A stretch of 64,000 nt of DNA from Thermoplasmata archaeon (GCA_035632695.1 DASQGG010000167.1:120-64119); one strand, 5' to 3'; shown: positions 26,974-51,492, numbered from the stretch's first letter. A program made the numbers and translations. The notes: generated by a model not told the origin, from the letters alone.

Positions 26974-27042
26974 GGGAGCACACTCCCGTCGGTGTCTCCC
27001 TTGCGGTGGGCCTCGGTTGCACGGTCCATGCGGCCGGTGGCA

Positions 27043-28554: not shown

Positions 28555-28558
28555 CCTC

Positions 28559-29716
28559 TCACCCCAGGGCTTGCGCGGCGAGGTCGGTCAGGTCGATGAT
28601 CTTCAGCGCGGGGAGGGGATCCACGGGCCGGCCGTCGAGGTAGCAGGAGAAGTGGATGCGACAGTGCGGGCACGCGGTGACCAGGTTCCCCGCCTTCGAC
28701 GCGGCTTCCTCGAGGCGCTCCTGCTGCAGGAACTTCGTCTGCGCGTCGCAATTCGAGTACGCCCCGACGCCGCAGCACATCGCGTTCTCCCGCACGCGGT
28801 CCATCTCGACCAGTGTGACGCCCGGGATCGCCTGCAGGACGGCCCGCGGTGCGTCGTACTCCCGGGAGTGGCGGCCGAGGCGGCAGGGATCCTGGTACGT
28901 GACCGTGAGGTCCACGGGCTTCGTGAACGCGAGCCGTCCCTCCTGGACGAGTTCCTGGATGAGCTGGGTCATGTGGAGGACCTCAATGGGCCACTCGCCG
29001 ACGACCTTCGGGTACTCGTACTTCAGCATGGAGTAGCACTCGGCGCATGTGGTCACGAGGCGCTTCGCGCCGCTCGCCCGGATCCACTCCGCGTTCCGGC
29101 GGGCCAGGGTCTCGAACGTCTCGCGGTCGCCGTTCCAGAGGGCGTCGTGGCCGCAGCACCGTTCCGCGTTCGCGACGACGGGCACGATCCCGGCCGCATT
29201 CATGATCTTGATCGCCGCCTTCCCGATCCGGGCGCTGTCGCAGTAGGAGAAGACGCCGTCGAGGTAGGGCATGCAGCCCGTGAAATAGATCACGTCGCCG
29301 GTGTCCGCGACCTTGAGCCCGTCCCCGATCCAGGCGCGGCGGTCCTGCTTCAGGTTCGGCTTCGCCATGATCTTGGCCAGGAGGTCCTTGTACCCACCGT
29401 GCTTGCACGGTGCGGTCCGCTCCCGGATGGGGCGCAACGCCTCCCGCTTCGCGCGGATGAACGCCGGGTACGGCACCTGGGTCGGGCAGACCGCCTGGCA
29501 CTCCCCGCACGTGAGGCAGGCCCAGAGGTCTCGCTCGCTCATGCCGTCCGCCCCGCCCAGGTACGCCCGGAGGACCACCTTGCGGGGGCTGAAGAGGACG
29601 TCTGCCCGGTGGACGGGGCAGCTCAGGGTGCACTTGTTGCACTGGATGCAGCCCTCCTGGGCCAGGATTCGCAGGGCGTCGTCCGGGCCAACCGTCGGGG
29701 ATGCGAGGGCCGCCAT
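28559..29716 (-). CDS. HdrD-like iron-sulfur protein (HdrC-type 2x[4Fe-4S] N-terminus fused to HdrB-type CCG domains)
   Basis: CIQCNKCTLSCP and CLTCGECQAVCP, then FTGCMPYLD, CCGHD, YQDPCRLGR, CCGVG and CPHC. The start is ATG at 29716, overlapping the mvhD stop in an ATGA overlap. Confidence 0.8.
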   Translation of the reverse strand: MAALASPTVGPDDALRILAQEGCIQCNKCTLSCPVHRADVLFSPRKVVLRAYLGGADGMSERDLWACLTCGECQAVCPTQVPYPAFIRAKREALRPIRERTAPCKHGGYKDLLAKIMAKPNLKQDRRAWIGDGLKVADTGDVIYFTGCMPYLDGVFSYCDSARIGKAAIKIMNAAGIVPVVANAERCCGHDALWNGDRETFETLARRNAEWIRASGAKRLVTTCAECYSMLKYEYPKVVGEWPIEVLHMTQLIQELVQEGRLAFTKPVDLTVTYQDPCRLGRHSREYDAPRAVLQAIPGVTLVEMDRVRENAMCCGVGAYSNCDAQTKFLQQERLEEAASKAGNLVTACPHCRIHFSCYLDGRPVDPLPALKIIDLTDLAAQALG

Positions 29717-30129
29717 CAGGCCACCTCCCGCAGGGGGCTCGGGCCAAGCTTCCGAAGGGTGTCCGTGAACTCGTTCGCGATTTCCGCGAACCGCGGTCCC
29801 TCCGAGCTCGAGGCCGCTTCCATCCGGAGCCGCTCGGGGCCGATGCCCAGCGTCCGGAGGACGCCCGAGAGACGGTCCGTCTGCTCGCGCGCCTGGACGT
29901 TCCCGCTCTTGTAGTGGCACGAACCCGGGTGGCAGCCCATCACGAGGACACCGTCGAACCCGCGCTCGAACGCCCGGAGGACGTAGTACGGGTCCACCAT
30001 GCCCGTGCACATGAGGCGGACGATCTTCACCGCGGACGGATACGGGATCTTCGCGGCGCCCGCCTGGTCTGCGGCGTTGTACCCGCACCAGTTGCAGCAG
30101 AGCGCGAGGATCTCGGGGTCGGCCGTCAT
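29716..30129 (-). CDS. mvhD: methyl-viologen-reducing hydrogenase delta subunit homologue (MvhD/FlpD [2Fe-2S] electron-transfer protein)
   Basis: 137 aa with LALCCNWCGY, CTGMVDP and MGCHPGSCHY, the diagnostic MvhD cysteine pattern. It lies directly downstream of hdrA. Confidence 0.85.
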   Translation of the reverse strand: MTADPEILALCCNWCGYNAADQAGAAKIPYPSAVKIVRLMCTGMVDPYYVLRAFERGFDGVLVMGCHPGSCHYKSGNVQAREQTDRLSGVLRTLGIGPERLRMEAASSSEGPRFAEIANEFTDTLRKLGPSPLREVA

Positions 30130-32129: not shown

Positions 32130-33019
32130 GCCTTCACGACCTCCTGTGCCTCGAGCATCCCGATGACAGGGGCCACGCTGACCGTGTGGCGCCCCACGCC
32201 GAGGCGGCCCGGATCGATGCCGAACGCGAGCCCGGCGAGCTGGGGGAGATGGAGGATGGGCATGCCGATCCGCCGGCCTGCGGCCTTCGAGGCCTCCTTC
32301 TGATGCGCGTCGAGCACGAGGTGACAGAGTGGGCAAGGGGTCGCAAGCATCGTCGCACCCGCGTCCTTTGCCTCTGCGAGGGCCGCGCCGGACAACCGCG
32401 AGGTGAGGTCCTCGCTCACCGTCGGGGCATCGAACCCGCAGCAGGCGGTCCGGCCTCGGTACGGCAGCGGATTCCCGCCGAGGATCCGGACAAGGCGCTC
32501 AATCGATTTCGGGTCCGCAGGCGTGTCGAACGCCTCCGCACCAGGAGCCCGCAAGAGGCGGCACCCGTAGAACGCGCCCACCGCGACGTCGCCGAGCGGT
32601 CGCCGCACGTGGGCCGCGAGCTTCTTCTCGCCGACGTCCTGCAGCAGGACCTGGAGGAGATGTTTGACCCGAACGCCACCGCCGTAGGCGCTCGGTCCCG
32701 CCCGTCCCAGGGCGTGGTTGATCCTCGCGCGTGTATCCGGGTCCTCGAGGGCCTGCGCGGCTTCGGACAGGTAGAGCTGGCACGCGCCGCACACGGTGAG
32801 GATGTCGAGCCCCTTGGCCTGTGCCAGGGACAGGGTGCCGGCGTTCGCCGCCAGGGCGCGTTCGGGCTCCGTCCGTTGGAGGTCCCCCGCGCCGCAACAC
32901 GCGGCGCCCTCTAGGTCGACGAGTTCGATCCGGAGTTCCTTCGCCACCGCGCGCGTGGACTCGTCGAGCTCCTCGCACTCATCCTGCGCCGCGCACCCCG
33001 GGAAATACGCAAATCTCAT
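32126..33019 (-). CDS. hdrB: heterodisulfide reductase subunit B (HdrB; two CCG domains)
   Basis: MRFAYFPGC N-terminus, CCGAG, YGCR, CCGFD and CPLCH, typical of HdrB. The protein is 297 aa from ATG 33019. Confidence 0.85.
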   Translation of the reverse strand: MRFAYFPGCAAQDECEELDESTRAVAKELRIELVDLEGAACCGAGDLQRTEPERALAANAGTLSLAQAKGLDILTVCGACQLYLSEAAQALEDPDTRARINHALGRAGPSAYGGGVRVKHLLQVLLQDVGEKKLAAHVRRPLGDVAVGAFYGCRLLRAPGAEAFDTPADPKSIERLVRILGGNPLPYRGRTACCGFDAPTVSEDLTSRLSGAALAEAKDAGATMLATPCPLCHLVLDAHQKEASKAAGRRIGMPILHLPQLAGLAFGIDPGRLGVGRHTVSVAPVIGMLEAQEVVKA

Positions 33020-33305
33020 GGGAATTCCTCCAAGGCGGCGAGCGTTGATCCCCTGCCGGCTCGGCGTGCAACGCCGCGTGACCTCGAGGCGACTCCGGGC
33101 CAGAACTCGGGAGCCACCGAACGAGGGGATGTCAGCTCCATCGCTCCCGCCATCCTGTGGGCGTCGACCCTCCGGACGCCGGATATAGCTAAGGTACGTA
33201 CTGCACGTGTAATCCCTGGACGCGTCCACTGGAGGATCGACAGGAAGACGCACGGGCTCGGAAGGCGCCGGATGCGGGGCCATCCGCACGGTGGGTGCGC
33301 GTCCG

Positions 33306-33313
33306 TTAAATAT
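33306..33313 (+). promoter_or_regulatory. TATA box (TTAAATAT) about 25 nt upstream of the larA-like ATG (33337); leaderless
   Basis: The same octamer precedes rps3ae. It lies in the 300-bp divergent intergenic region between hdrB and the larA-like gene. Confidence 0.5.
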
Positions 33314-33336
33314 CGCGTCCCGCGTTGTGGCGACCC

Positions 33337-34797
33337 ATGGTGGCGAAGAGCATCGCGGCGCAAGTGCCCCGCCTCGCGTACGGGGATCGCTTCCTATCCG
33401 ACTTCCTCCCGGATCGCGTCCTGTCCGAGGGCCGACTCGTTCCGCTGCGGACGCCCGAAGGTGCGCCCGCGGTGCCGGACGTGGCGGTCGCCCGGCGGCA
33501 AGCGCTCGAGGTGTCCTCGACGCCGGACCTGGTCCCTGCCCTGAACGAATGGCTCGTCTCCCGGTACCGCGGCGGGGATGTCGCGGTCATAATCGACGAC
33601 TACGCGCGGCCGTGCGCCCACCAACGTCTCCTCCTGCCCGGCCTCCTCGAGTGGCTCCAGGCCCACGGCGTCAAGCGGGAGCGGATCGCCTTGATCATCG
33701 CCGCGGCGACCCACCGGGACCCGAAACCGGAGGAGTGGCCGTACATGCTCGGGGACAAGCTGTGGCCCGCCTGGAAGGACCGCGTGTTCTTCCATCACGA
33801 CCGCGAGGACCTCGAGAAGCTCGGCGCGATGCCCGACGGCACGCCCATCGAGCTGAACGGACGGGCCGCCCGCTCGGAGCTCATCCTCTCCCTGTGCGAC
33901 CTCGACTACCACTACTTCGCCGGCGTGAGCGGAGGGCCGAAGCACCTGGTGCCCGGGATTGCGGGGCGGGCGCTCACGACCGCGGACCACCTCCGGATGT
34001 TCGGCGAGCTTGGGTTCGCGCCCCACGTGGACATGGGCATCCTAGACGGCAACCCGGTGTACGAGTACAAGCGCGCGGCCGTGCGGATCGTCCTGGACGC
34101 GCTCCGGGCCCGCGGGAGCTTCGTCTACGCCGTGGTCTGCGTCCTGAACCCTGCGTACCAGGTGGTTGCGCTCCAGGGCGGCGATATCGTCGCCGTCCAC
34201 CGGAGGCTGCGGCACGACCTCGACAAGGTGTACGCCGCGTCGATCCCGCGGCTCGCGGACATCGCGATCGTGACGGCACGCCACCTGGGGATCAACGTCT
34301 ATCAGGCCGGGAAGGCGATCAACGCCGCGGCGCGTGCCGTGAAGCCGGGCGGGACCGTGGTCTGCGTGGCCCCATGCCCGGACGGGTTCGGGAACGAGGA
34401 GTTCCGAAACCTGATGAAGATCGCGGCCCCCGTGCTCCAGGAGGCGGACGACCTGATCGCCCTAGGTGGGGATCCTGCCAAGCTAGGTCCCGAGGCGATC
34501 GACCGCGCCCTGCGGGCGGTCCAGAAGGTCGTCATGGCGGACTTCAAGATCGGGAAGCAGAAACCCGTGGACATGCTCGTCCAGTACCGCCGCACAGGCT
34601 GGGGACACCTGTGGCTCCTGTGCGACGGGCTCACGGACGAGGAGCGCAAGTTGCTCCCCTTCCGCTACGTCGGCAAGCGCGGCGAGGACCCGCAGACGCG
34701 CCTACAAGCCTGGGTCCGGGACCAGGAGAGGAACGGCAAGCCCACGTATCTGATCGTCGACGACCCTACGTACTGGATTCAGCTCAAAGGCGCGTAA
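33337..34797 (+). CDS. larA: lactate racemase (LarA) family protein, DUF2088-type nickel-pincer enzyme homologue
   Basis: 486 aa. N-terminal DUF2088-like region and central HYFAGVSGGPKHLVPGIAG (LarA-type H..G.SGG.K) are present, with several conserved His/Asp candidates. It is adjacent to lactate dehydrogenase-like genes. Family-level confidence only. Confidence 0.65.
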   Translation: MVAKSIAAQVPRLAYGDRFLSDFLPDRVLSEGRLVPLRTPEGAPAVPDVAVARRQALEVSSTPDLVPALNEWLVSRYRGGDVAVIIDDYARPCAHQRLLLPGLLEWLQAHGVKRERIALIIAAATHRDPKPEEWPYMLGDKLWPAWKDRVFFHHDREDLEKLGAMPDGTPIELNGRAARSELILSLCDLDYHYFAGVSGGPKHLVPGIAGRALTTADHLRMFGELGFAPHVDMGILDGNPVYEYKRAAVRIVLDALRARGSFVYAVVCVLNPAYQVVALQGGDIVAVHRRLRHDLDKVYAASIPRLADIAIVTARHLGINVYQAGKAINAAARAVKPGGTVVCVAPCPDGFGNEEFRNLMKIAAPVLQEADDLIALGGDPAKLGPEAIDRALRAVQKVVMADFKIGKQKPVDMLVQYRRTGWGHLWLLCDGLTDEERKLLPFRYVGKRGEDPQTRLQAWVRDQERNGKPTYLIVDDPTYWIQLKGA

Positions 34798-34820
34798 GCC
34801 CGGATTCGGAGGCCGCGCGT

Positions 34821-36140
34821 CTACCCCGCCAGTTCCATGTACTTCGCGATTTCGTCCCAGTTCCACGAGCCCCCCGATTTCGGGCTCGGCTTGAGATGAT
34901 CCAGGTCCCCGCGGTTGGCGAGGCGGTCCACGAGGTACGCGGCGAACGCGGGAGAGCCCGTGGCCCCCGGGGAATTGTAGTTCAAGATGTGGTACGAGTG
35001 GGGTCCGGGCACCTCGATGGCTTCTTTCACGATCCCCCCGCGGCGGTTGACCACCGGAGTGCGGATGCCCGCGGTCCCCGGCGAGACGAGGTGCGCGAGC
35101 CTCAACCCGGGCAGGAACCGCTGCACGCGCTGCAGCATGGCCTCCTTGGAGACTGAGCTCCACATCTCTTGGGTGGCCAGGCTCAGGAAGTCCTTGTCGA
35201 GCATGAGGCGGACCTTGTTGAAGATCGGCGGCTCGAAGAACTTCGCGAACCACGGGCCCATGGGTCGGAACAGCCCATCGTAGGACGCCGGCCCGGAGAC
35301 AGGCACGGCGTTCGGCCCGATCTCCCGCCGGCCGTTCGCGCGGATCACCCAGTGTGGATCAAGGAACGGAAGGTCCGTGTGCCGCGGAACCGAGTAGACA
35401 TTGTGCCGGACGAGGTCCGCGGCGTGCGCGTCGATCGTCCAGTACTCGCCTCGGAAGTGCATGTCCGTGTACTCCAGCGCGACCCCCATCGCGTGGGCGA
35501 GGTCGATCGCGCTCCCGCCCGCGCAGCCGATCAGGAATCCGGCGCGAACGGGCTCGTTCGCCCCATCCACGCGGACTTCGATGCCCGAGTCCGACGCGAG
35601 GACGGAGGTCGCGTCCGCGCCGGTGAGGAACCGGACCCCGAGCGCCTCCGCATCCGCCTTGACCGATTCCGTGAACGCCTGGTAGTCCACGGCCGTGTCC
35701 GTCCTCGAGAACAGGGCGCCCTCGCACCGAACGTTCGGTTCCCGACGCGCCATCTCGCGTCTGTCGAGGAGCTCGACCTCGGAGGGCGCCATCCCGTTTT
35801 CCGCGGCGTAGCCCACGTACGCCCCCAGGTGGGACATCTGCCCGTCCTCGAGCGCCACCTCGTAGGTTCCGATCTCGTACCACGGGAGCCCCTTCGTCGC
35901 GGCGTACTTCTTCCAGAGATGATACGAAATGCCGGCCGCACGGGCGAAGATTCTCGCCTTCGCAGGATTCAGGTAGAACGGCCGGTGGACGACGCCCGTG
36001 TTCCGCCGGCTCGCATGCAGGGCCACGTCGCGCTCCTTCTCCAGGACGACGAACCGGCCGTCGTAGCGGGCCGCGAGCCAGTAGGCGACGGAGGTGCCGA
36101 GGATTCCGCCTCCCACGATGGCGACGTCCCAGGGTTCCAT
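34821..36140 (-). CDS. FAD-dependent oxidoreductase, L-2-hydroxyglutarate oxidase/dehydrogenase-like (LhgO/YgaF family, DAO superfamily)
   Basis: N-terminal dinucleotide-binding motif WDVAIVGGGILGTSVAYWL, a length of 439 aa, and DAO-family C-terminal elements. Confidence 0.75.
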   Translation of the reverse strand: MEPWDVAIVGGGILGTSVAYWLAARYDGRFVVLEKERDVALHASRRNTGVVHRPFYLNPAKARIFARAAGISYHLWKKYAATKGLPWYEIGTYEVALEDGQMSHLGAYVGYAAENGMAPSEVELLDRREMARREPNVRCEGALFSRTDTAVDYQAFTESVKADAEALGVRFLTGADATSVLASDSGIEVRVDGANEPVRAGFLIGCAGGSAIDLAHAMGVALEYTDMHFRGEYWTIDAHAADLVRHNVYSVPRHTDLPFLDPHWVIRANGRREIGPNAVPVSGPASYDGLFRPMGPWFAKFFEPPIFNKVRLMLDKDFLSLATQEMWSSVSKEAMLQRVQRFLPGLRLAHLVSPGTAGIRTPVVNRRGGIVKEAIEVPGPHSYHILNYNSPGATGSPAFAAYLVDRLANRGDLDHLKPSPKSGGSWNWDEIAKYMELAG

Positions 36141-36194
36141 GAGGGTCCTGCGGTCTCCGCAACCAAGCGCGGCTTATTAGGACTGCGACAACGA

Positions 36195-37280
36195 CTACGG
36201 ACCGGTCCAAGGTACGCGCAGATCGGAACCGATTTGCTTCAGGTTCTCGGCGACCTTCGGAGAGAGCGGGATGCCTTCCTTCCGGTATTTCTCCATGCGC
36301 GCGAAGCTCTTCTCGCCCGCGACGTAGATGCGCGTCTGGCCCTCCGCCTTCGGGCTGTCCTTGAGCTCGCGGGCGAGGCGGTCCATGTCCCGCTTGAACT
36401 CCTCCAGCGGCCGAAACGCTCCCGGATCGATCGCCAGGAAGAAGTGACCCACGTCCGGACGCTTTTCGTCCGCGTAGACCTGGAGCCCCGTGGCCGCGCC
36501 GGGGAGGACTCCCGAGAGGACGTCGACCAAGAGGGCGAGCCCGTAGCCCTTGTGGCCTCCGAGTTCCTCGCCCTCGCCTCCGAGGGGCAGGAGGCCGCCG
36601 CCGAGACGCTTGGACAAGGCGTTCAGGACGCGGGCCGCGTCCGAGGTGCTCTTCCCGGTTTCGTCCACCGCCCAGCCGTGCGGCATAGGCTTGCCCGCCC
36701 GGTTGTAGACCTCGACCTTGCCCCGCGGGACCGTCGCCGTGGCCATGTCGAAGACGAAGGGCGTCTCGTGCGACGTCGGCGCGGTGATGCTGATCGGGTT
36801 CGTCCCGAGGACGGCCGATCGGCCGAACGTGGGCACGACGAGCGGCGCGGCGTTCGTCATGCTCATTCCGATCAGATCGTGCTCGAGCGCCATCAAGGAA
36901 TAGTACCCGGCGATGCCGTAGTGATTCGAGTTCCTCACGGTCACGACGCCGACCGCGGTCTCTTTGGCCTTCCGGATCGCGAGCTCCATGCCCTTCTTGC
37001 CGACGACCTGCCCGAGGCTCTGCGCCCCGTCGAGCAGCGCGGTGGCCTTCGTCTCCCGGACGATCGTGCTGTGGTCCGTGGGCTTCATGTAGCCTTCCTG
37101 GAGCCCGCTCACGTACCGCTGGAGCCGCGCGACGCCGTGGCTCTCGATGCCGCGAAGGTCCGCAAGGACGAGGACGTCCGTCGTCACGCCCGCGTCGTCC
37201 GCCGGCACCCCGAGCTTCATGAGGACTTGTTCGCAGAAGCTCCTGAGAGGCTTCTCCTGGATGAGAATCTTGTCCGCCAT
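36195..37280 (-). CDS. Ldh_2-family malate/L-lactate/L-sulfolactate dehydrogenase (type-2 MDH/LDH, ComC-like)
   Basis: 361 aa from ATG 37280 (MADKILIQEKPL..). Conserved Ldh_2 motifs are GIESHGV, NSNHYGIAGYY, GTNPISIAAP and GHKGYGLAL. Confidence 0.8.
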   Translation of the reverse strand: MADKILIQEKPLRSFCEQVLMKLGVPADDAGVTTDVLVLADLRGIESHGVARLQRYVSGLQEGYMKPTDHSTIVRETKATALLDGAQSLGQVVGKKGMELAIRKAKETAVGVVTVRNSNHYGIAGYYSLMALEHDLIGMSMTNAAPLVVPTFGRSAVLGTNPISITAPTSHETPFVFDMATATVPRGKVEVYNRAGKPMPHGWAVDETGKSTSDAARVLNALSKRLGGGLLPLGGEGEELGGHKGYGLALLVDVLSGVLPGAATGLQVYADEKRPDVGHFFLAIDPGAFRPLEEFKRDMDRLARELKDSPKAEGQTRIYVAGEKSFARMEKYRKEGIPLSPKVAENLKQIGSDLRVPWTGP

Positions 37281-37405
37281 GCACACGCCTCGGTTCGGGG
37301 CCCACAATTGCCGTTCGCGTATAAGGCTGCGGTGCGTACGATGGGAACCACGGGAACGCCGGTCATCGCCGCAGACTCAAGTAGGGGTGCGTCTCTCCGT
37401 CCACC

Positions 37406-40942: not shown

Positions 40943-41602
40943 TCACGGGTGGCTTTGCGCTCCAACGTAGGGAGCCCGAACGGCCTTCGCGCGGCGGCGC
41001 AGGCCCGGTCCGAGGGGAATCGTTCCTGCCCCCAGGTTCGAGTTGGTGACGATGGCGAAGCTCGTGTACGCAGCGGCGGTGGCCGAGAAGATGCCGAAGT
41101 AGCCTCCCGCCGTCGTCGCCATCGTGCTGGGAAGCACGTCGCCCAGGCCCAGGAACACGAAGGCCAGCCACAGGAAGAGGAACGTCAGGTTCAGGGAGAG
41201 GTTCGCGAACATCGCGGGGATCCACATGTAGAAGGTGAAGATCCCGTAGAGCAGCAGGGCCGTCCCCACGGCGACCGCGGGCGGCGCGATCAGGCCCATC
41301 TTCTCTAGGAGGACGAGGCTTCCGAAGAAGAGCCAGAAGGCCCCGTAGCTACTGAAGGCCGTGAATCCGAAGGTGTTCCCCTTGCGCATCTCGAACACAC
41401 CCGCCAGGAGTTGGCCCAGCCCCCCGTAGAACAGCGCCAGGGGGACAACGACGCCCACCGCGCTCGCGCCGAGCCATCCGGTGTTCACGAAGCTGAGAAG
41501 GAACGTCGTGAACGCGAAGCCGGCCAAGCCGAGGGGCGCGGGGTCTGCCAGGAGGGCTTTCTCGTTCAGACTCGTCGGCGAAGGCGCAGTCATTTGACTC
41601 AT
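40943..41602 (-). CDS. acetate uptake transporter, GPR1/FUN34/YaaH (SatP/AceTr) family
   Basis: Family signature NPAPLGL-GFA-TT is present as [20 protein letters not shown], with six TM helices in 219 aa. It is divergent from acs. Confidence 0.8.
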
Positions 41603-41837
41603 CCTGATCCACCTCGTTTCATCAGGTCCGCCGCATCCGTTGGCGGGCTCCGTCGGCCCGTTCAGCCCTTGCCGGGTAAGGAGCTATGGAAAATACCCTA
41701 CGGGACGAGTGCGCGAGGCGCCCGGCCGCGAGCTGCGCGGGAATCCGCTCACGCTATATACTTTCTATGGATTGTGCTTGACCAGCCCTTATAAAAGAGG
41801 GCATCGCCTGGAACGATTCCGAACCGGGGTCGCGACC

Positions 41838-43799
41838 ATGGTTGTGTCCAGTGCCACCATCGACAGCCTGCTCAAGGAAAAGGAACAGTATCCTCCGTCG
41901 GACGACTTCCGCCGCCGCGCCCTGGTCAAGGACGACGCCGTCTATGCGCAGGCGGCCAAGGACCCGGAGGGGTTCTGGGCCAGGCAGGCGGAACAGTACC
42001 ACTGGATCCGGAAGTGGGACAAGGTCCTCGAATGGGACGCGCCGTTCGCGAAGTGGTTCGTCGGCGGGAAGATCAACGTCTCCGAGAACTGCCTGGACCG
42101 CCAGGTGCACTCGGAGCGGCGGAACAAGGCCGCGATCGTGTGGGAAGGCGAACCCGGCGACAAGAAGGTCTTCACGTACTACCAGCTGTGGCGCGAGGTG
42201 AACAAGTTCGCGAACGTCCTGAAGTCTCTAGGCGTGAAGCGCGGGGATCGGGTCACGATCTACATGCCCATGATCCCCGAGCTGCCCATCGCAATGCTCG
42301 CGTGCGCCCGGATCGGGGCGCCCCACAGCGTGATCTTCGGCGGCTTCAGCTCCAAGGCGATCCACGACCGTGCGTCGGACGCGGAGTCCGCGATCATCGT
42401 CACCGCGGACGCGGGGTACCGCCGCGGCAGCCTCGTCCCGCTCAAGAAGACCGTGGACGAGGGGATTGCGGACCTGCCCAGCGTGAAGCACGTGGTCGTA
42501 TTCAAGCGCGCGACCGGCGATTGCGCGATGAAGGAGGGCCGCGACGTCTGGTGGCACGACCTCATGGCCCACGCAGACCCCTGGTGCGAGCCCGAGCCCA
42601 TGGACGCCACGGACCCGCTCTTCGTCCTGTACACGTCGGGCACCACGGGCAAGCCCAAGGGGATCGTCCACTCCACGGGCGGCTACCTCGTCGGCGTCGC
42701 GGCGACCCAGCGGATGATCTTCGCCCTGCGCGAGGATGACTTCTACTGGTGCACGGCGGACATCGGCTGGGTCACGGGGCACTCGTACATCGTGTACGGC
42801 CCCCTGGCGAACGGCGCGACGTCCTTCATCTACGAGGGCGCCCCCGACTTCCCGAAGCAGGACCGCTGGTGGTCCCTCGTGGAGGACTACGGCGTCACGA
42901 TCATGTACACGGCCCCGACCGCGATCCGCGCGTGCATGCGCTGGGGCGACGACTGGCCCAAGGCGCACGACCTGTCCACTCTGCGGCTCCTGGGGACCGT
43001 GGGCGAGCCCATCAACCCGGAGGCGTGGCGGTGGTACTACAGGAAGATCGGCGGCTCCCGCTGCCCCGTCGTGGACACGTGGTGGCAGACGGAGACGGGC
43101 ATGATCCTGATCACGCCCCTCCCCGCGGTCGGGCCCCAGAAGCCTGGGTCGGCCACGTTCCCGTTCCCGGGCGTGAGCGCGGAGGTCGTCGACGAAACCG
43201 GACAGCGCGCGGGCGTGAACCGCGGCGGCTACCTCGTGATCACGAAGCCATGGCCCGCGATGCTCACGACGATCTACAAGGACCCGGAGCGGTACAAGGC
43301 CACGTACTGGTCCCAGATCAAGGGCAAGTACTTCACCGGGGACGGGGCGCGCGTGGACGAGGACGGCTACTTCTGGCTCATGGGTCGCATCGACGACGTG
43401 ATCAACCTCGCGGGCCACCGGATCGGCACCATGGAGGTCGAGTCCGCCCTCGTGAGCCATCCCAAGGTCGCGGAGGCCGCGGTCGTTGGGAAGCCGGACC
43501 AGCTCAAGGGCCAGGTCCTCGTGGCCTACGTGGTCCTGAAGACGGGCCAGGAACGGTCCGAGGCGCTCAAGGACGAGCTCAAGAAGCACGTGCGTAAGGA
43601 GATCGGCCCCATCGCCGCCCCGGAGGCGATCTACATCACGGACAAGCTCCCGAAGACTCGCAGCGGGAAGATCATGCGGCGCGTGATCCGCGCCCTCGTG
43701 AGCGGCCAGGAGATCGGCGACACGACCACCCTGGAGGATCCCGGCGCCGTCGAGGAAGTCCGGAAGTGGCTCGCCGCCGTGGAGGGGAAGGCTCCTTAG
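41838..43799 (+). CDS. acs: acetyl-CoA synthetase (AMP-forming)
   Basis: 653 aa. The AMP-binding motif is [11 protein letters not shown], with WWQTETG and the acetylatable lysine motif [11 protein letters not shown] near the C-terminus. Confidence 0.9.
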
Positions 43800-43806
43800 G
43801 TCCGAC

Positions 43807-45753
43807 GTGGCATTCGTCCGCGTGAGCCCGGAAGGTGATCCCGTGCAGAGCCCCGATTCGAGCGCGGCGCAGGACTGGCAGACGCGCTACGAGGAGAAGG
43901 TCCGCACCCCGGACGAGGCCGTGTCCGCGATCCAGAGTGGGGACCACATCTTCATCGGGTCGGGGGCCGCGGAACCCCAGCGGCTCGTCGAGGCCCTCGT
44001 GAAGCGCGCGAACGCGGTCTTCGGCACGGAGATCGTTCACATCATGACCCTGGGCATCGCGCCGTACGCGGAGCCCAAGTGGGGCGACAACTTCCGCCAC
44101 AACGCCCTCTTCATCGGCCCCAACGTGCGGGAGGCGGTGGCCCAAGGGCGGGCGGACTACACGCCCATCTTCCTGGGCGAGATCCCGCGGCTCTTCGAGA
44201 CGGGGCGCGTGCCCATCGACGTCGCTCTGATCCAGGTGAGCCCGCCCGACCGGCACGGATACTGCTCCTACGGCGTGAGCACGGACGTCGTGAAGCCGGC
44301 CACGGAGGCGGCGAACCTCGTGATCGCCGAGGTCAACCGGGAGATGCCCCGGACCCTCGGCGACTCGTTCCTCCACGTGGACGACATTGACTTCCTGATC
44401 CCGGTGGCCTACCCGATCCTGGAGACCCAGGTGGGCGTGGCCGACGAGATCGCACGGAACATCGGGAAGTACATCGCGAACCTCGTCGAGGACGGCTCCA
44501 CGCTCCAGATGGGGATCGGCACGATCCCGGACAGCGTCCTGTACTACCTGCGGGACAAGAAGGACCTCGGGATTCACACGGAGATGTTCTCGGACGGGAT
44601 GATGCACCTCGTCGAGCTCGGCGTGATCACGAACATGAAGAAAACGCTGCACAAGGGCAAGGTGGTCGCGGCCTTCTGCATGGGCTCCAGGGCGCTCTAC
44701 GAGTTCGTGGACAACAACCCCTTCATCGAGTTCCATCCCGTGTCCTACACGAACGACCCGTTCGTCATTGCGCAAAACGACCGCATGGTCTCCATCAACT
44801 CCGCCCTCGAGGTGGACCTCACGGGCCAAGTGTGCGCGGACAGCCTCGGCGCCTACTTCTACTCGGGGATCGGCGGCCAGGTGGACTTCGTCCGCGGCGC
44901 GGCCCGCGCCAAGGGCGGCAAGCCGATCATCGCGCTCCCCTCCACCGCGGCGGACGGCACGATCTCCCGGATTACCGCGCAGCTCAAGCCCGGGGCCGGC
45001 GTGGTCACGAGCCGCGGGGACGTACACTACATCGTCACGGAGTGGGGCGTCGCGTACCTGCACGGCCGCACGATCCAGGAGCGTGCGCTTGCCCTGATCT
45101 CGATCGCCCACCCCAAGTTCCGCCCCGACCTCATCCGTCAGGCCAAGACATTCAAGTACATCGCGGACGACGTGCCCGAGATCTCCGAGATCGGCATGGT
45201 CTACCCGGAACGGTGGGAGATGACCCACACCTTCGAGGACGGCACGCGGGTCTTCTTCCGCCCCATCAAGATGACGGACGAGGAGATGATGAAGGACCTG
45301 TTCTACCGGCTCTCCGAGCAGACGATCTACCACCGGTTCTTTCGCTCCCTGAAGTCCATGCCCCACCGCGACCTCGTGCACTTCGTCCACATCGACTACA
45401 CGAACGAGATGGGGATCGTGGGCATCGTCCAGGATCCCGACAAGACGGAGCGCGAGGAGATTATCTGCATCGGGCGGTACTACCTGAACCGTTCCACGAA
45501 CGTGGCCGAGGTCTCGTACCTGGTCCGGGACGACTACCAGAAGCGCGGCATCGGATCGTACCTGGTGAAGTACCTCGCCCGGATCGCGAGGGAGAATGGG
45601 ATTGCGGGCTTCGAGGCGGAGATCCTGCCGGACAACCCCCCCGCGATGAAGGTCCTCCACAAGCTCGGTTTCCCGGTCGAGACGATCGCGTCCTCGGGGA
45701 ACTATCAGCTTCGCGTGCGCTTCGAGCGGCCCGCGCCCACGGCGAAGAGCTGA
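43807..45753 (+). CDS. fusion protein: acetyl-CoA hydrolase/transferase (family I CoA-transferase, AbfT/Ach1-like) N-terminal domain of about 440 aa plus a C-terminal GNAT N-acetyltransferase domain of about 190 aa
   Basis: The N-terminus has AcetylCoA_hydro architecture (..IFIGSGAAEPQ.., ..HTEMFSDGMMHL.., ..GGQVDFVRGA..). The C-terminus is a GNAT with motif A RDDYQKRGIGSYLVKYLARIARENGI and the preceding beta-strands. Its start is 8 nt after the acs stop. Confidence 0.8.
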   Translation: MAFVRVSPEGDPVQSPDSSAAQDWQTRYEEKVRTPDEAVSAIQSGDHIFIGSGAAEPQRLVEALVKRANAVFGTEIVHIMTLGIAPYAEPKWGDNFRHNALFIGPNVREAVAQGRADYTPIFLGEIPRLFETGRVPIDVALIQVSPPDRHGYCSYGVSTDVVKPATEAANLVIAEVNREMPRTLGDSFLHVDDIDFLIPVAYPILETQVGVADEIARNIGKYIANLVEDGSTLQMGIGTIPDSVLYYLRDKKDLGIHTEMFSDGMMHLVELGVITNMKKTLHKGKVVAAFCMGSRALYEFVDNNPFIEFHPVSYTNDPFVIAQNDRMVSINSALEVDLTGQVCADSLGAYFYSGIGGQVDFVRGAARAKGGKPIIALPSTAADGTISRITAQLKPGAGVVTSRGDVHYIVTEWGVAYLHGRTIQERALALISIAHPKFRPDLIRQAKTFKYIADDVPEISEIGMVYPERWEMTHTFEDGTRVFFRPIKMTDEEMMKDLFYRLSEQTIYHRFFRSLKSMPHRDLVHFVHIDYTNEMGIVGIVQDPDKTEREEIICIGRYYLNRSTNVAEVSYLVRDDYQKRGIGSYLVKYLARIARENGIAGFEAEILPDNPPAMKVLHKLGFPVETIASSGNYQLRVRFERPAPTAKS

Positions 45754-45762
45754 GGCTCACCG

Positions 45763-46212
45763 TCACCCGCGGCGTCGCCGGGTCTTCCGTGGCCTAGCGA
45801 TTCGTCGCTTCTTCGTGGGCTTCGTGGCTCGGTGGAAGACGTCGAGCCAGAGCCCATCCACCACGGGAACGAAGGCGTAGTGCCACCGCCCACCATGGAA
45901 CGGTCCGTGTTTCACGAGGTAGCCCTCCTCCTTCAGGCTCGCGAGGGCCGCGTCCAAGTCATCGACCTCGAAACCCAGGTGGTCCAACGTGTCGCCCTCG
46001 CGGAACGGACCCTCCACGGGACCCTGCTCGGGGTACCAGTTCAGCTCAAGCCAGTGCTTCCCATCGCGGCTCAGGAGGTTCGCGAACTCCCCTTGCGTCC
46101 ACTTCGGCTTCACGCGCCCCCGGAGCTTCATGCCCATGACCCGGGTGAAGAAGTCGATGGCTCGGTCGAGGTCCCGCACGCGGATGCCCGTATAGGCGAA
46201 CGCGGACTTCAT
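45763..46212 (-). CDS. VOC-family protein (glyoxalase/bleomycin-resistance/dioxygenase fold)
   Basis: Paired beta-alpha-beta-beta-beta modules (..FAYTGIRVRDLDRAIDFF..GMKL.. and ..HLGFEVDDLDAALASLKEEGY..). 149 aa with a basic tail. Confidence 0.65.
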   Translation of the reverse strand: MKSAFAYTGIRVRDLDRAIDFFTRVMGMKLRGRVKPKWTQGEFANLLSRDGKHWLELNWYPEQGPVEGPFREGDTLDHLGFEVDDLDAALASLKEEGYLVKHGPFHGGRWHYAFVPVVDGLWLDVFHRATKPTKKRRIARPRKTRRRRG

Positions 46213-46258
46213 GGCCCGCGGGACGTGGCGCAAGCGGCTTAGACTTTCCGTCGTCCCC

Positions 46259-47002: not shown

Positions 47003-47864
47003 CGATGTTCCCTCCCACCATGGCGATGAACGCGTCCTCGAGGGTCGGCGGCTTGAATGTGACCCGCTTCCCGTCCTGAATCCCTCGCTGCACGATCTGC
47101 ACGATCTCCTGATCCGAGTTCGGGCTGAGGACCTGCCGCTCGCCGCCGTTGTTGAGCGCCTCGATGATCACCTGCATGCCGTGTCCGGCGTGGGCCTTGG
47201 CCGCCTCGACGCTGCCGAGGAAGACCGTCCGGCCCTTGTCCACGATCGCGAGACGGTCCGAGAGCCGCTCCGCCTCGTCCATGTAGTGCGTCGTCAGGAG
47301 GACGGTCACGCCCTGTCTCGTCATGCGGCGGACCATGGCCCATACCTGCCGCCGCCCGAGCGGATCGAGACCAATCGTGGGCTCGTCGAGGAACAGGAGC
47401 TCGGGGTCCGTCGTCAGAGCGATCGCGACCATCACGCGCTGCCGCAGGCCGCCGCTCAGGTCCGCGGTGAGCTTGTCCTTGTGCTCCCAGAGGTCGAACT
47501 CCTCCATGATCGCTCGCGTCCGGCGCCGGGCCTCGGCGCGCGGAATCCCGCGGATCATCGACATGAGGTAGATGTGGTCGTAGGCGGAGAGCATCATCTG
47601 GGGGCGCGCCTCCTGGGGGACCACGGAGATCTTCTCGCGGATCGCGCGGGCCTCCTTCGTCACATCATGTCCTAGCACCGTGGCGTGCCCGGTCGTGGGA
47701 CGCAGCTGGGTCGCCAGGATGCGAAGCAGCGTGGTCTTGCCGGCCCCGTTGCGGCCGAGAAGGCAGAAGACTTCGCCCTTCGGAACCTCGAAGGAGACGC
47801 CCTCGAGGGCCTGCGTGCCTCCCGGGTACGTCTTGCCGAGGGCCTGCACCTCGATGACTGCCAT
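46986..47864 (-). CDS. ABC transporter ATP-binding protein (ABC-2/DrrA-type)
   Basis: Walker A GRNGAGKTT, signature LSGGLRQRV, Walker B LLFLDEPTIGLD and H-loop TTHYM. 292 aa from ATG 47864. Confidence 0.85.
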   Translation of the reverse strand: MAVIEVQALGKTYPGGTQALEGVSFEVPKGEVFCLLGRNGAGKTTLLRILATQLRPTTGHATVLGHDVTKEARAIREKISVVPQEARPQMMLSAYDHIYLMSMIRGIPRAEARRRTRAIMEEFDLWEHKDKLTADLSGGLRQRVMVAIALTTDPELLFLDEPTIGLDPLGRRQVWAMVRRMTRQGVTVLLTTHYMDEAERLSDRLAIVDKGRTVFLGSVEAAKAHAGHGMQVIIEALNNGGERQVLSPNSDQEIVQIVQRGIQDGKRVTFKPPTLEDAFIAMVGGNIDDESA

Positions 47865-47874
47865 CCCCCGTTCG

Positions 47875-48921
47875 ATGTGGCACCCGGTACTTGAGCGTTC
47901 TGAGCCTTTGTGGCCGATACGTTCCACTCGCAGGGAGGACGTCGCTCGGCGTCCGGGCGCGATCGTCCACAATGTACTTACCGTGCAGGGTTCGTCGGGG
48001 GCCGTGGACGGTACCGCGAAACCGGCCGGACCGGCCGAGGAGACCGCCCGGGCGAAGTGGTCCCGCGGTCGCAAGATCTTCGCGGTGATCGGGGCGCTCA
48101 TCTTGGTCTTCGTCGGCGTCTACGTGGCGTACGGGTACCTGAACGGCCTCCCTCCCCAGGTGCTGTCCGTCCTAGGTCGAGGGCAGGCCTACCTGGACGT
48201 GGCCTTCATGACGGTCTACACGCCGTCCATCCCGGGCGCCACCGACTTCAATGTCACCGCGATGGTCACCTTCGCCAACGGATGGCAGTTCCCGTTCGCG
48301 TGGGGGAATGTGAGCGGTACCTCGCTGCCCGTCCGGTTCGTCCTGAGTCCCAGCGACGTCTTCCGGACCGGTCCGTCGGACGGGTTCGTGTACGGGGAGG
48401 CCGTCAGCGGGACGACCCGCATCGGGGTCGTAGGCCCTCACCCGCCCGGCGCGTTCGTGTCGTTGTGGTTCATGACCTACTCCGTCCGGCAGCTGACGGC
48501 CTGGCAGGGGTTCACCCAGGCCACGTGGCTCGAGGTGGACTACGCCCTGGCGCCCGTTTCGCTCGACTTTGGCGAACCCCTTCCCGTGGCCAACGTGAGC
48601 GCACCTGTCGCGTCCGATCTCATCCCGGCGGGCATCACGGACGACCTGAACCTAAGCGTGCAACCGGGCTACGTCTTGCCGCTGGACCACGACATCTACA
48701 ACGCGTCGTCTCCGTGGCCCACCTTTCACCACGCGCTGCCCGCGGTCACCTTCCGCGCAGGCAGCGTGGGCAACTTCACCGCGTCGCTGACGTCCTCGTT
48801 CCAATGGGCGAAGGGGGACAACTACCGCGTCGAGATGACGTTCTCTGGAGCCTTGCACGGGTATCTGACCTGGTATTGGGACGCACGGTTCGGCTCGTTG
48901 TACGCCGTGTTCTCTCCCTAG
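47875..48921 (+). CDS. hypothetical N-terminally anchored extracytoplasmic protein
   Basis: A cytoplasmic N-terminus, one TM (IFAVIGALILVFVGVYVAYGY), then a roughly 280-aa Ser/Thr/N-sequon-rich domain. The start is ATG 47875, or alternatively GTG 47983. Confidence 0.5.
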   Translation: MWHPVLERSEPLWPIRSTRREDVARRPGAIVHNVLTVQGSSGAVDGTAKPAGPAEETARAKWSRGRKIFAVIGALILVFVGVYVAYGYLNGLPPQVLSVLGRGQAYLDVAFMTVYTPSIPGATDFNVTAMVTFANGWQFPFAWGNVSGTSLPVRFVLSPSDVFRTGPSDGFVYGEAVSGTTRIGVVGPHPPGAFVSLWFMTYSVRQLTAWQGFTQATWLEVDYALAPVSLDFGEPLPVANVSAPVASDLIPAGITDDLNLSVQPGYVLPLDHDIYNASSPWPTFHHALPAVTFRAGSVGNFTASLTSSFQWAKGDNYRVEMTFSGALHGYLTWYWDARFGSLYAVFSP

Positions 48922-49025
48922 GACCGCAGTTTGATTTCGGTTCGTCGCCTTTCGTTTTGGGACGACCCAAAATCGCCGGAATACGTGCCAAAGGCTTATG
49001 GTCCCGTCGTGAATCCAGTCGGCTC

Positions 49026-50735
49026 GTGGACCGCCTCGCATACGACGTGGTCGTGGTCGGCGGCGGCGGCGCGGGGCTGCGCGCGGCGATCGCCGCGGCG
49101 GAAGCCGAGCCGAAGCTGACTATTGGGTTGCTCTCCAAGGTGTATCCGATGCGGAGCCACACGGTTTCCGCGGAAGGCGGCACCGCCGCGGTCATGCGGG
49201 ACTACGACAGCTTCGAGCTGCACGCACTCGACACGATCAAGGGCTCCGACTACCTGGCGGACCAGGACGCGGTCGAGTACTTCGTCGCCCACTGTCCGGA
49301 GGAAATCGTCCAGCTCGACCACTGGGGATGCCCCTGGTCCCGCGACGACGACGGCAAGATCCAGCAGCGGGCCTTCGGCGGCATGTCCGTGAAGCGGACC
49401 TGCTTCGCCGCGGACAAGGTCGGCTTCCACATGCTCCACACCCTTTTCCAGACGTCCATGAAGTATCCCCAGATCGTCCGGCACGACGAGTGGTTCGCGA
49501 CGGACATCATCGTGGAGAACGGCGTCGCCGCGGGCGTGGTCGCGATCGACATCCGTCGCGGCGAGCTCAGCTACGTGAACGCGAAGGCCGTCGTCCTCGC
49601 GACCGGCGGCTCCGGGCGTGTGTACGAGTTCACGACGAACGGGTTCATCAAGACGGGCGACGGGATGGCGCTCGCGTACCGTGCCGGCGTTCCGCTCAAG
49701 GACATGGAGATGGTCCAGTTCCATCCCACCTGCCTGCCGGGCACCGGGATCCTGATCACGGAGGCGGCCCGTGGCGAGGGCGGGTACCTGATCAACAAGG
49801 ACGGGGAGCGGTTCATGAAGAACTACCTCCCGAGCAAGATGGAGCTCGGCCCGCGGGACATCCTCTCCCGGTCGGAGATTCAGGAGATCCGCGCGGGCCG
49901 CGGCTTCGAGGGGCCCCACGGCGCGTACGTGGGCCTCGACCTGCGCCACCTCGGCGAGAAGGCGATCGACGAGCGGTTGCCCATGGTCCGGGAGCTCGCG
50001 GAGAAGTACCTCGGCCTCGACCCGATCCACGAGCCGATCCCGGTCCGGCCGGGGCAGCACTACATCATGGGCGGCGTCGCGACGAACCTCCGCGGCGAGA
50101 CGAACGTCCCCGGGCTTTACGCGGTGGGCGAGACCGCGTGCGTCTCGATCAACGGCGCGAACCGCCTCGGGTCGAACAGCCTGAGCGAGTGCCTCGTCTT
50201 CGGTAAGTCGACCGGGCTGGCGGCCGCGGCCTACGCGAAGAAGCGGGACTGGCCGCGGGGGACCGCCGCGAAGGAGCACCTCGCGAAGGAGGAGACCCGG
50301 ATCTTCGGCGGCCTGATGACGCGCGAGGTCGGCAAGGAGAGCGTCGCCGCGATCCGCACGGAGATGCAGCAGATCATGGAGCGGGACGTGGGCATCTTCC
50401 GAGACGAGAAGGGCCTCACGGACGCATGCGCGAAGCTCGCGACGTTGCGGCAGCGCTTCGCGAACGTGGGCGTCACGGACAAGGACCGCGTCTTCAACAC
50501 GGAGCTCCAGCAGGCGTTGGAGCTCGACTTCATGCTCGACGTGGCCCAGGCGATCGCGTGGAGCGCGCTGAACCGGCGGGAGTCCCGCGGGGCGCACAGC
50601 CGGACGGACTACGCAAGCCGGGACGACGCGAACTACCTGAAGCACTCCCTCGCGTACCGCACGGACCGCGCGCCCCGGATCGACTACCTGCCCGTGACGA
50701 TCACCAAGTGGCAGCCCCAGGAGAGGAAGTACTGA
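49026..50735 (+). CDS. sdhA: succinate dehydrogenase / fumarate reductase flavoprotein subunit
   Basis: GTG start giving (M)DRLAYDVVVVGGGGAGLRAA. The FAD-attachment motif RSHTVSAEGG and active-site R..HY.MGG, ..RESRGAH.R are present. 569 aa. Confidence 0.9.
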   Translation: MDRLAYDVVVVGGGGAGLRAAIAAAEAEPKLTIGLLSKVYPMRSHTVSAEGGTAAVMRDYDSFELHALDTIKGSDYLADQDAVEYFVAHCPEEIVQLDHWGCPWSRDDDGKIQQRAFGGMSVKRTCFAADKVGFHMLHTLFQTSMKYPQIVRHDEWFATDIIVENGVAAGVVAIDIRRGELSYVNAKAVVLATGGSGRVYEFTTNGFIKTGDGMALAYRAGVPLKDMEMVQFHPTCLPGTGILITEAARGEGGYLINKDGERFMKNYLPSKMELGPRDILSRSEIQEIRAGRGFEGPHGAYVGLDLRHLGEKAIDERLPMVRELAEKYLGLDPIHEPIPVRPGQHYIMGGVATNLRGETNVPGLYAVGETACVSINGANRLGSNSLSECLVFGKSTGLAAAAYAKKRDWPRGTAAKEHLAKEETRIFGGLMTREVGKESVAAIRTEMQQIMERDVGIFRDEKGLTDACAKLATLRQRFANVGVTDKDRVFNTELQQALELDFMLDVAQAIAWSALNRRESRGAHSRTDYASRDDANYLKHSLAYRTDRAPRIDYLPVTITKWQPQERKY

Positions 50736-50736
50736 C

Positions 50737-51492
50737 ATGGCGGAACCGAAGCGCGTCGTGTTCCGCGTCCGGCGCTACCAGCCCCAAGGGACGAAGGGCC
50801 CGTACTATCAGGAGTACACGGTCCCGTACCGCGACGACGAGGTCGTGCTGGACGGGCTGAACTACATCAAGGACCACCTGGACCCCACGCTCACGTTCCG
50901 CTGGTCGTGCCGGATGGGCATCTGCGGCTCCTGCGGCATGGACGTGAACGGGAAGCCCAAGCTCACGTGCGGCACGTTCATCCGCGACGCGAGCGCGGGC
51001 GGCGTCGTCCAGGTGGACCCGCTCACGAGCTTCAACTCGATCAAGGACCTGGTCACGGACTTCGACCCGTTCATGGAGCACTTCCTCCACGTGAAGCCCT
51101 GGCTCATCCGGGAGAAGGAGAAACCGCTCTCCGAGGGCGAGTACCTCCAGTACCCCGAGGACCTGGCGGCCTTCCGGCAGCAGAGCCTGTGCATCAACTG
51201 CACCCTCTGCATGGCCGCGTGTCCCGTGTTCCAGGGCGACGACGGGTTTATCGGCCCCGCGTCCCTCGCGATGGCCCTGCGGTACATCCGGGATACCCGC
51301 GACCAGGGCGCTGAGGAACGGTTCCAGCGCATCTCGACGTCCCACGGGATCTGGGAGTGCACGTTCGTGGGCGAGTGTTCCGTCGTCTGCCCGAAGGAGG
51401 TCGATCCCGCGGGCGCGATCCAGACCCTGAAGCTCATGGCGACGACGCGGCGGATGAAGAAGCTCCTCATGCCCAAGTCCGCCCCGAGGTGA
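50737..51492 (+). CDS. sdhB: succinate dehydrogenase iron-sulfur subunit
   Basis: The [2Fe-2S] motif is CRMGICGSCGMDVNGKPKLTC, the [4Fe-4S] is CINCTLCMAACP and the [3Fe-4S] is CTFVGECSVVCP. It starts 2 nt after the sdhA stop. Confidence 0.9.
   Translation: MAEPKRVVFRVRRYQPQGTKGPYYQEYTVPYRDDEVVLDGLNYIKDHLDPTLTFRWSCRMGICGSCGMDVNGKPKLTCGTFIRDASAGGVVQVDPLTSFNSIKDLVTDFDPFMEHFLHVKPWLIREKEKPLSEGEYLQYPEDLAAFRQQSLCINCTLCMAACPVFQGDDGFIGPASLAMALRYIRDTRDQGAEERFQRISTSHGIWECTFVGECSVVCPKEVDPAGAIQTLKLMATTRRMKKLLMPKSAPR

Follow-up and report, generated by a model that had tools for sequence, protein, structure and literature searches.

A stretch of 64,000 nucleotides from a Thermoplasmata archaeon (GCA_035632695.1, DASQGG010000167.1:120-64119; hereafter the window, with positions counted from its first letter) carries, directly downstream of the acetyl-CoA synthetase gene acs, a gene whose product joins a full-length family-I CoA-transferase to a C-terminal GNAT domain of the Pat type. 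Reversible lysine acetylation of acetyl-CoA synthetase (Acs) is the textbook case of prokaryotic metabolic control by acetylation. We propose, with a probability of roughly 0.7, that the fusion protein is a Pat-family lysine acetyltransferase with the CoA-transferase as its accessory domain, and that it acetylates and blocks the neighbouring Acs.

The fusion gene occupies positions 43807-45753 on the plus strand, where the longest open reading frame (ORF) comprises 648 aa and has no internal stop. A preliminary description of this locus had read the gene as one continuous fusion, and a scan with Pfam and NCBIfam bears this out. The two halves of the CoA-transferase, AcetylCoA_hydro (PF02550, aa 25-197, 1.4e-32) and AcetylCoA_hyd_C (PF13336, aa 293-446, 1.4e-67), and the C-terminal Acetyltransf_1 (aa 528-622, 1.4e-11) lie in a single frame without stop or frameshift, and more than 100 homologues conserve the junction between the CoA-transferase and the GNAT. 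The start had been placed 8 nt past the acs stop codon. The tight linkage stands, the exact distance does not: the first in-frame GTG (43807) is found 7 nt past that stop, and the GTG at 43843, which follows a Shine-Dalgarno-like GGAAGGTGAT (43830-43839; with the start codon 43830-43845, plus strand), is the likely true start, giving a product of 636 aa and a gap of about 43 nt. The protein P0001, 100% identical and encoded in a metagenome-assembled genome of the Thermoplasmata, is annotated by NCBI at precisely 636 aa, the 15 N-terminal residues of the long ORF lack conservation among homologues, and the gap measures 20-49 nt in relatives. The two genes remain closely linked and are probably co-transcribed.

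The fusion is widespread. Among 5.8 billion proteins searched there were more than 120 clusters (90% identity) of full-length homologues at 59-100% identity, originating from Thermoplasmata and Phycisphaerae; both domains are present in all of them except two truncated entries. A survey of one genome per GTDB species provided 76 loci, of which 40 hold a fusion, while 32 of the other 36 hold a stand-alone CoA-transferase and served as controls. The archaeal fusion loci belong to Thermoplasmata and Promethearchaeota (Asgard), the bacterial ones to Chthonomonadales, Phycisphaera, Desulfobulbia, WOR-3, Oceanospirillaceae and Verrucomicrobiota. When the GNAT domain alone was used as HMMER query against 1.84 billion 50%-identity representatives, 68 of the best 150 hits were fusions or fragments of fusions, and the fusion family is therefore large and diverse. 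An assembly or frameshift artefact was rejected, since the ORF is continuous in 40 genome loci as well as in the more than 120 clusters of homologues. Database entries label these proteins only as 'GNAT family N-acetyltransferase', 'acyl-CoA hydrolase' or 'acyl-CoA hydrolase/GNAT'. A structure search found no PDB chain that spans both domains; the AlphaFold2 model of the fusion has a pLDDT of 79.7 and a pTM of 0.70. Two proteins show larger architectures, in which the CoA-transferase and the Pat-GNAT are accompanied by some 330-410 extra residues, N-terminal in P0206 (967 aa) and C-terminal in P0173 (965 aa). In one Thermoplasmatota fusion (L027:7324-7857) the GNAT similarity ends near aa 565 and tblastn spans GNAT residues 5-104 only, which suggests a frameshift, a pseudogene or an error of assembly; it is the sole fusion locus that appears frameshifted.

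The Pat-type GNAT domain (aa 465-630; 45199-45696, plus strand) was delimited by sequence, NCBIfam and structure matches. It aligns end-to-end with the GNAT domains of solved Pat enzymes, with S. lividans PatA (4nxy, 1.7e-23) and E. coli PatZ (9it0, 1.9e-19) in front, and further matches include M. tuberculosis Pat (4ava, 5e-14), Sulfolobus SsPat (3f8k, 9e-8) and M. smegmatis Pat. Moreover, the best NCBIfam match is 'acetyltransferase Pat' (mycobacterial Pat, 7.6e-22), and the top structural match (TM-score 0.87, root mean square deviation 2.7 A) is 4u5y, the GNAT domain of SlPat that was crystallised with the C-terminal domain of Acs. The alignment with Pat GNATs also covers the Pat-specific N-terminal segment YPERWE...RPI...YHRFF; residues Y466, P467, R485, P486, Y500, R510, F511 and F512 are invariant among the homologues. 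The motif-A string RDDYQKRGIGSYLVKYLARIARENGI, quoted earlier for this GNAT, is indeed present, and the residues for acetyl-CoA binding and catalysis are not degenerate. E568 (codon 45508-45510) aligns with the catalytic glutamates E809 of PatZ and E235 of MtPat and is kept in all 34 genome-locus fusions compared; among 37 divergent representatives the position is occupied by Glu in 27 and by Asp in 8, so that 35/37 have the catalytic acid. The acetyl-CoA P-loop Q578-K-R-G-I-G-S is intact as well, with G581 conserved in 34/34 genome-locus fusions and 36/37 divergent representatives. By homology, the domain is thus predicted to be a Pat-family protein N-epsilon-lysine acetyltransferase. The GNATs outside this family (RimI, phosphinothricin and diamine acetyltransferases) match weakly, with E-values from 7.6e-5 to 1.5e-3.

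Pfam, PDB sequence matches and Foldseek identify the N-terminal domain (aa 25-446; 43879-45144, plus strand) as a complete family-I CoA-transferase of the 4-hydroxybutyrate-CoA-transferase type. Its closest PDB sequences are 9vag (3.5e-151) and then 3eh7, 2oas and AbfT (3gk7), within a range of 1e-123 to 1e-151. The AlphaFold2 model has the two-lobed alpha/beta fold, includes both Pfam halves and, according to Foldseek, superimposes on 3gk7, 2oas, 3eh7 and RipA with TM-scores of 0.89-0.93. The structure-aligned identity amounts to 40-48% for AbfT, 2oas, 3eh7 and RipA, and to 45-48% for the solved 4-hydroxybutyrate-CoA-transferases. In the alignment with 3gk7, the putative nucleophile E259 (codon 44581-44583, motif HTEMFSDG) coincides with E238 of AbfT, which we take to be the nucleophile of that enzyme. 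The equivalent residue in RipA, Glu249, is the family-I nucleophile (PMC3180442). The oxyanion/CoA motif of the GxGGQxDF type reads SGIGGQVDF at aa 353-361. Among 66 homologues with at least 59% identity, E259, G354, G356-G357-Q358, D360 and F361 are all invariant. Each pairwise comparison gave a higher conservation for the CoA-transferase domain than for the GNAT, in the clade of the window protein for example 66% versus 48% in L028. Since its catalytic residues are invariant and it is the better conserved of the two domains, the CoA-transferase domain may in this clade still be an active enzyme that turns over acyl-CoA.

A different picture was obtained across the family as a whole. A MAFFT alignment of 37 full-length fusion representatives with 31 stand-alone homologues showed that the nucleophilic Glu is present in 31/31 stand-alone proteins versus 19/35 fusions, the remainder having D, A, P, S, C, H or Q (p = 5e-6), and that the GGQ motif is present in 30/31 versus 6/37 (p = 3e-12). 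For the most divergent representatives the residue mapping rests on this alignment, in which the flanking H-T/S anchor is retained. One case is an Asgard clade (L030, L032, L037, L051) where HT-E has become HS-H, replacing the nucleophile by His, where GGQ has become GET and MGIG is altered, and where the Pat GNAT is intact. Three of these loci have acs adjacent despite the dead-type CoA-transferase motifs. It appears from these motifs that the CoA-transferase domain repeatedly lost its catalysis after the fusion and was kept as a folded module, while the GNAT stayed catalytic. Because catalytic motifs were lost in many fusions whereas the GNAT residues were kept, the CoA-transferase domain can be regarded as an accessory module, which is probably regulatory. 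The decay of the one domain beside an intact GNAT parallels the pattern in Pat/PatZ. In PatZ the catalytic His of the ACD-like domain (ACD, ADP-forming acetyl-CoA synthetase) is replaced by Leu; acetyl-CoA is bound by this domain, which also makes the enzyme a tetramer and opens the substrate gate of the GNAT (PMC12184503).

The candidate substrate is encoded next door. The acs gene (41838-43799, plus strand) specifies an AMP-forming acetyl-CoA synthetase of 653 aa with the Pfam domains ACAS_N, AMP-binding and AMP-binding_C, which scores 1024.9 bits against the NCBIfam model acetate--CoA ligase (cutoff 657) and 971 bits against TIGR02188 (cutoff 725). The canonical context of an acetylatable lysine that had been recognised in its C-terminus is located at aa 605-615. 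It includes the A10 motif PKTRSGK (aa 605-611; codons 43650-43670, plus strand), and K611 (codon 43668-43670) matches K609 of S. enterica Acs, the acetylated active-site lysine (PMC12184503). The 11-residue stretch is identical in all 15 linked Acs proteins of which the C-terminus was captured. Divergently from acs, as described before, runs a gene for an acetate (succinate-acetate/proton) transporter of the SatP/AceTr family, the SatP/YaaH channel (40943-41602, minus strand; Pfam Gpr1_Fun34_YaaH 1.5e-42; NCBIfam AceTr_1 133.5 bits, cutoff 50). L001 and L003 have a homologue at the equivalent place, and L007, L008, L011 and L023 have one with 30% identity. Reading of the 235-bp intergenic region between satP and acs (41603-41837, no strand assigned) revealed a TATA-like TTATAAAA at 41789-41796, 42-49 nt 5' of the acs ATG, which is a putative acs promoter element.

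The association between the fusion and acs extends beyond the window. Genes were called at each locus with a simple GC3-based caller (third-codon-position GC content), which replaced an all-versus-all BLAST of raw ORFs that was swamped by high-GC shadow ORFs. A locus was counted as having acs if the window Acs, used as tblastn query, matched at more than 250 bits in the available flanks of up to 6 kb. The linkage of acs in orthologues, on which the earlier proposal had been made to depend, was observed in 16 of the 40 fusion loci versus none of the 32 stand-alone CoA-transferase loci (Fisher p = 2e-5, for loci that are not phylogenetically independent). It occurs in three phyla, in three orientations (co-directional, divergent and convergent) and in at least four lineages. 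More specifically, acs lies upstream of the fusion in the Thermoplasmata clade of the window, where it is directly adjacent, and in Chthonomonadales; in a second Thermoplasmata clade the upstream gene is another acs paralogue, 45% identical and above the NCBIfam cutoff for acetate--CoA ligase; and in the Asgard loci acs is divergent or convergent to the fusion. The linkage is not a single inherited arrangement.

A second functional association concerns a deacetylase. A histone deacetylase (HDAC)-type gene (Hist_deacetyl) follows immediately 3' on the same strand in 10 of the 40 fusion loci versus 0 of the 32 controls (p = 0.0017). Eight of these loci are from Thermoplasmata, one is from Oceanospirillaceae and one from Verrucomicrobiota. 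The best solved relatives of the neighbouring HDAC are the protein deacetylases HDAC6, HDAC8, HDAC1-3 and RPD3. The complete order satP-like, acs, fusion, HDAC is seen in L007, L008, L011 and L023, and fusion-HDAC pairs are seen in L010, L012, L014, L015, L038 and L044. By analogy with known systems, acs, fusion and HDAC gene would form a cluster of substrate, writer and eraser. An observation of another kind was made in WOR-3, where an ADP-forming acyl-CoA ligase of ACD architecture is encoded 4 nt downstream of the fusion (L036:7855-10017). Its best NCBIfam match is 4-hydroxybutyrate--CoA ligase, at 763 bits and so below the cutoff of 1300, and its position beside a domain that resembles 4-hydroxybutyrate-CoA-transferases is a hint that this lineage has some link to 4-hydroxybutyrate.

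The mechanism that we propose would operate as follows. The fusion gene would be transcribed together with acs, and the GNAT would use acetyl-CoA to acetylate the active-site K611 within PKTRSGK of Acs. This modification would block the adenylation step, and the resulting shut-off of Acs would halt the ATP-costly activation of acetate when acyl-CoA is plentiful. The CoA-transferase domain would bind acyl-CoA or CoA, would probably dimerise or tetramerise the protein, and could control or shape the activity of the GNAT in the way the regulatory domain of PatZ does. A deacetylase encoded elsewhere, of the HDAC type in the sister clades, would reverse the acetylation. The sequences show what the two domains are, that their catalytic residues are intact, that the genes are linked and that the CoA-transferase domain has degenerated in other clades; that Acs is the substrate, that the domains are allosterically coupled and which way the regulation runs is inferred.

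Several observations weigh against a writer of Acs acetylation that is governed by a mere sensor domain. The conservation of the CoA-transferase domain in the window clade and its invariant motifs fit an active metabolic enzyme better than a sensor. No acs was found nearby in 24 of the 40 fusion loci, and neither acs nor an HDAC gene was found near five further fusions that were examined (Phycisphaerae and members with a degenerate domain). In addition, tblastn detected no HDAC or sirtuin in the window, which covers just 64 kb of the genome; the sirtuin query, E. coli CobB, was approximate, and that result is only indicative. As acs is missing near many fusions, Acs is maybe just one of the substrates, or a clade-specific one. 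A universal linkage to acs and HDAC was rejected, the Phycisphaerae and degenerate-domain fusions being located in unrelated contexts; such contexts are as expected for a regulator that is able to act in trans. Beside some of these fusions a gene of the histidine phosphatase family (His_Phos_1) was noticed: in L080 (7878-8582), L081 and L082 it overlaps a fusion gene with a degenerate domain at the 3' end of the latter, and L078 (15104-15796) has one at a distance of about 5 kb from a fusion of the Phycisphaerae.

The alternative that survives best is a bifunctional enzyme with reciprocal control, which we consider a real if minority possibility. Here the N-terminal domain would be an active acetyl-CoA hydrolase or acyl-CoA:acetate CoA-transferase that interconverts acetyl-CoA and acetate without ATP, the GNAT would meanwhile shut Acs off and so avert an ATP-wasting futile cycle, and the GNAT could be gated by the covalent Glu259-CoA intermediate acting as signal. 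This alternative is compatible with, and indeed extends, the reading as a Pat-family acetyltransferase with an accessory domain. It draws on the invariance of E259 and of the residues of the oxyanion/CoA motif in the 66 homologues, on the strong similarity in sequence and structure to solved 4-hydroxybutyrate-CoA-transferases, on the consistently higher conservation of this domain compared to the GNAT, and on the acetate-related neighbours, i.e. SatP and Acs in the window and the ADP-forming ligase in L036. Yet roughly one in two divergent fusion clusters is without the nucleophile and most are without GGQ, so catalysis by the CoA-transferase is not required for the conserved function of the family; moreover, Asgard members with a dead domain still adjoin acs. 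A more specific version, which must be called speculative and rather unlikely, holds that the enzyme itself is the sensor: window-type proteins would react with acyl-CoA to give the covalent Glu259-CoA thioester, and the occupancy of this state, set by the ratio of acetyl-CoA to acetate (or acyl-CoA to acid), would gate the GNAT that silences Acs. If true, one polypeptide would both run an ATP-free exchange of acetate and acetyl-CoA and prevent the futile cycle through Acs, the family would record the full path from an active enzyme to a pure allosteric pseudoenzyme, and the Pat design would have been invented independently a second time, in a form that is present in Asgard archaea.

It is improbable that the two domains are instead coupled by channelling of an acyl donor, such that the CoA-transferase makes a specific acyl-CoA (4-hydroxybutyryl-, propionyl-, butyryl- or succinyl-CoA) from the free acid and passes it on to the GNAT for a non-acetyl lysine acylation. 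Pat-family GNATs do accept propionyl-CoA, the closest solved relatives of the domain are 4-hydroxybutyrate and butyryl-type CoA-transferases, and the next gene in L036 best matches, below cutoff, 4-hydroxybutyrate--CoA ligase; against this, the degenerate members would be unable to make the acyl-CoA, and the linkage to acs and to HDAC-type genes indicates ordinary acetylation. Finally, it is very hard to maintain that the GNAT acetylates small molecules or N-termini, has no part in Acs control and is a neighbour of acs incidentally: generic Pfam GNAT models, the weak matches mentioned above and the fusion loci that lack acs would allow it, but the strong matches are all to the Pat family and surpass those to small-molecule GNATs by 10-18 orders of magnitude, there is conservation of the Pat-specific N-terminal segment (YP..WE...RPI...Y.RFF), and the acs and HDAC linkage is significantly above that of the controls. 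A small-molecule GNAT was rejected on the similarity ranking, and with it the acetyl-CoA-consuming N-acetyltransferase that the preliminary description had offered as its second option is not favoured.

The further surroundings of the acetate locus in the window can be summarized briefly. Upstream, at 25825-37307, there is a cluster of organic-acid redox genes with two CCG/4Fe-4S proteins, an FAD_binding_4 protein, a 736-aa Fer4/FAD oxidoreductase, a homologue of the LarA-like lactate racemases, a DAO-family oxidase and an Ldh_2 dehydrogenase. SdhA/SdhB genes are located at 48945-51492. Convergent to the fusion gene lies a glyoxalase/VOC-family gene (45763-46233, minus strand), the position of which is kept in the closest relatives (L001, L002, L053, L061) and not in more distant ones; this is probably just local synteny. 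Three ORFs with coding-like GC3, at 14929-16953 (674 aa), 20244-22376 (710 aa) and 47680-48921 (413 aa), have no Pfam match at 1e-5, and an ORF of more than 1961 aa (58115-64000, minus strand; GC3 0.93, coding-like) extends past the end of the window. Neither a second Pat-like GNAT nor an ACD gene was found within the 64 kb, the latter by tblastn.

Should the proposed function be correct, the family-I CoA-transferase would constitute a fifth regulatory module of Pat enzymes, unrelated to the ACD-like, cAMP, ACT and NADP modules. It occurs widely, in uncultured Thermoplasmata and Asgard archaea as well as in Armatimonadota, Planctomycetota and further phyla. To our knowledge, classical Pat has not been described in those phyla and little is known about acetylation control there. 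The intact and dead CoA-transferase domains would form a natural series for the conversion of a metabolic enzyme into an allosteric sensor, and the Pat design would have arisen twice, from different acyl-CoA enzymes.

Bacterial lysine acetyltransferases have been divided into five types: in types I and II the regulatory domain is ACD-like, in type III it is a cAMP-, ACT- or NADP-binding one, and types IV and V are without a regulatory domain; a CoA-transferase regulatory domain is not among them (PMC11254643, PMC8556138, PMC12184503). In line with this, full-text literature searches, with incomplete coverage of subscription papers, retrieved no description of the CoA-transferase-GNAT architecture. 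The preliminary description had announced an undescribed variant of Pat in archaea. The first part holds in so far as the variant is absent from the classifications cited, the second has to be widened, as the architecture is not specific for archaea and also occurs in several bacterial phyla.

The closest parallel is provided by the type I/II enzymes, i.e. S. enterica Pat, E. coli PatZ/YfiQ and S. lividans PatA. These share with the fusion a homologous GNAT including the catalytic Glu, the P-loop and the N-terminal segment, a large fused accessory domain that handles acyl-CoA and is a pseudoenzyme in many members, and the link to Acs. They differ in the nature of that domain, which is a module of about 700 aa resembling NDP-forming acyl-CoA synthetases (CoA_binding_2 + Succ_CoA_lig + ATP-grasp), whereas the fusion has a family-I CoA-transferase of about 440 aa with an unrelated fold. 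Indeed, Pfam and NCBIfam revealed no CoA_binding_2, Succ_CoA_lig or ATP-grasp_5 in the fusion, where only AcetylCoA_hydro/AcetylCoA_hyd_C precede the GNAT. Further differences are that the accessory domain of the window clade keeps all its catalytic residues and that the gene directly adjoins acs. The type III enzymes (the cAMP-dependent Pat of M. tuberculosis and M. smegmatis, the ACT-GNAT proteins AAPatA and MaKat, and the NADP-binding Kat of M. xanthus) have the same order of an N-terminal regulatory domain and a C-terminal Pat-type GNAT, and regulate Acs in response to a metabolic signal. Their regulatory domain is quoted at 300-400 aa, slightly smaller than the roughly 440 aa of the fusion, and the module of the fusion derives from an acyl-CoA-handling enzyme and not from a cAMP-, amino-acid- or NADP-binding module; no Pfam match to cNMP_binding, ACT or an NAD(P) Rossmann domain was obtained for the fusion protein.

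In terms of gene organization, the acsA-acuABC locus of B. subtilis is the nearest equivalent, with AcuA as GNAT writer and AcuC as HDAC-type eraser. As in L007, L008, L011 and L023, acs is found there beside an acetyltransferase and a Zn-dependent HDAC-type deacetylase. AcuA, however, consists of a GNAT domain alone and belongs to another subfamily, and the 64-kb window differs in that no HDAC gene was found in it. In terms of the N-terminal 440 aa, the fusion is a full-length homologue of AbfT, RipA and butyryl-CoA:acetate CoA-transferase, with the nucleophilic Glu and GGQxDF kept; the known enzymes are stand-alone and metabolic and have no GNAT, and stand-alone CoA-transferase homologues are near acs or an HDAC gene in 0 of 32 cases, unlike the fusions. 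Considering these likenesses and differences, the fusion is, on the strength of its sequence, best described as a probable member of the Pat family with a further type of regulatory domain, and not as a new principle.

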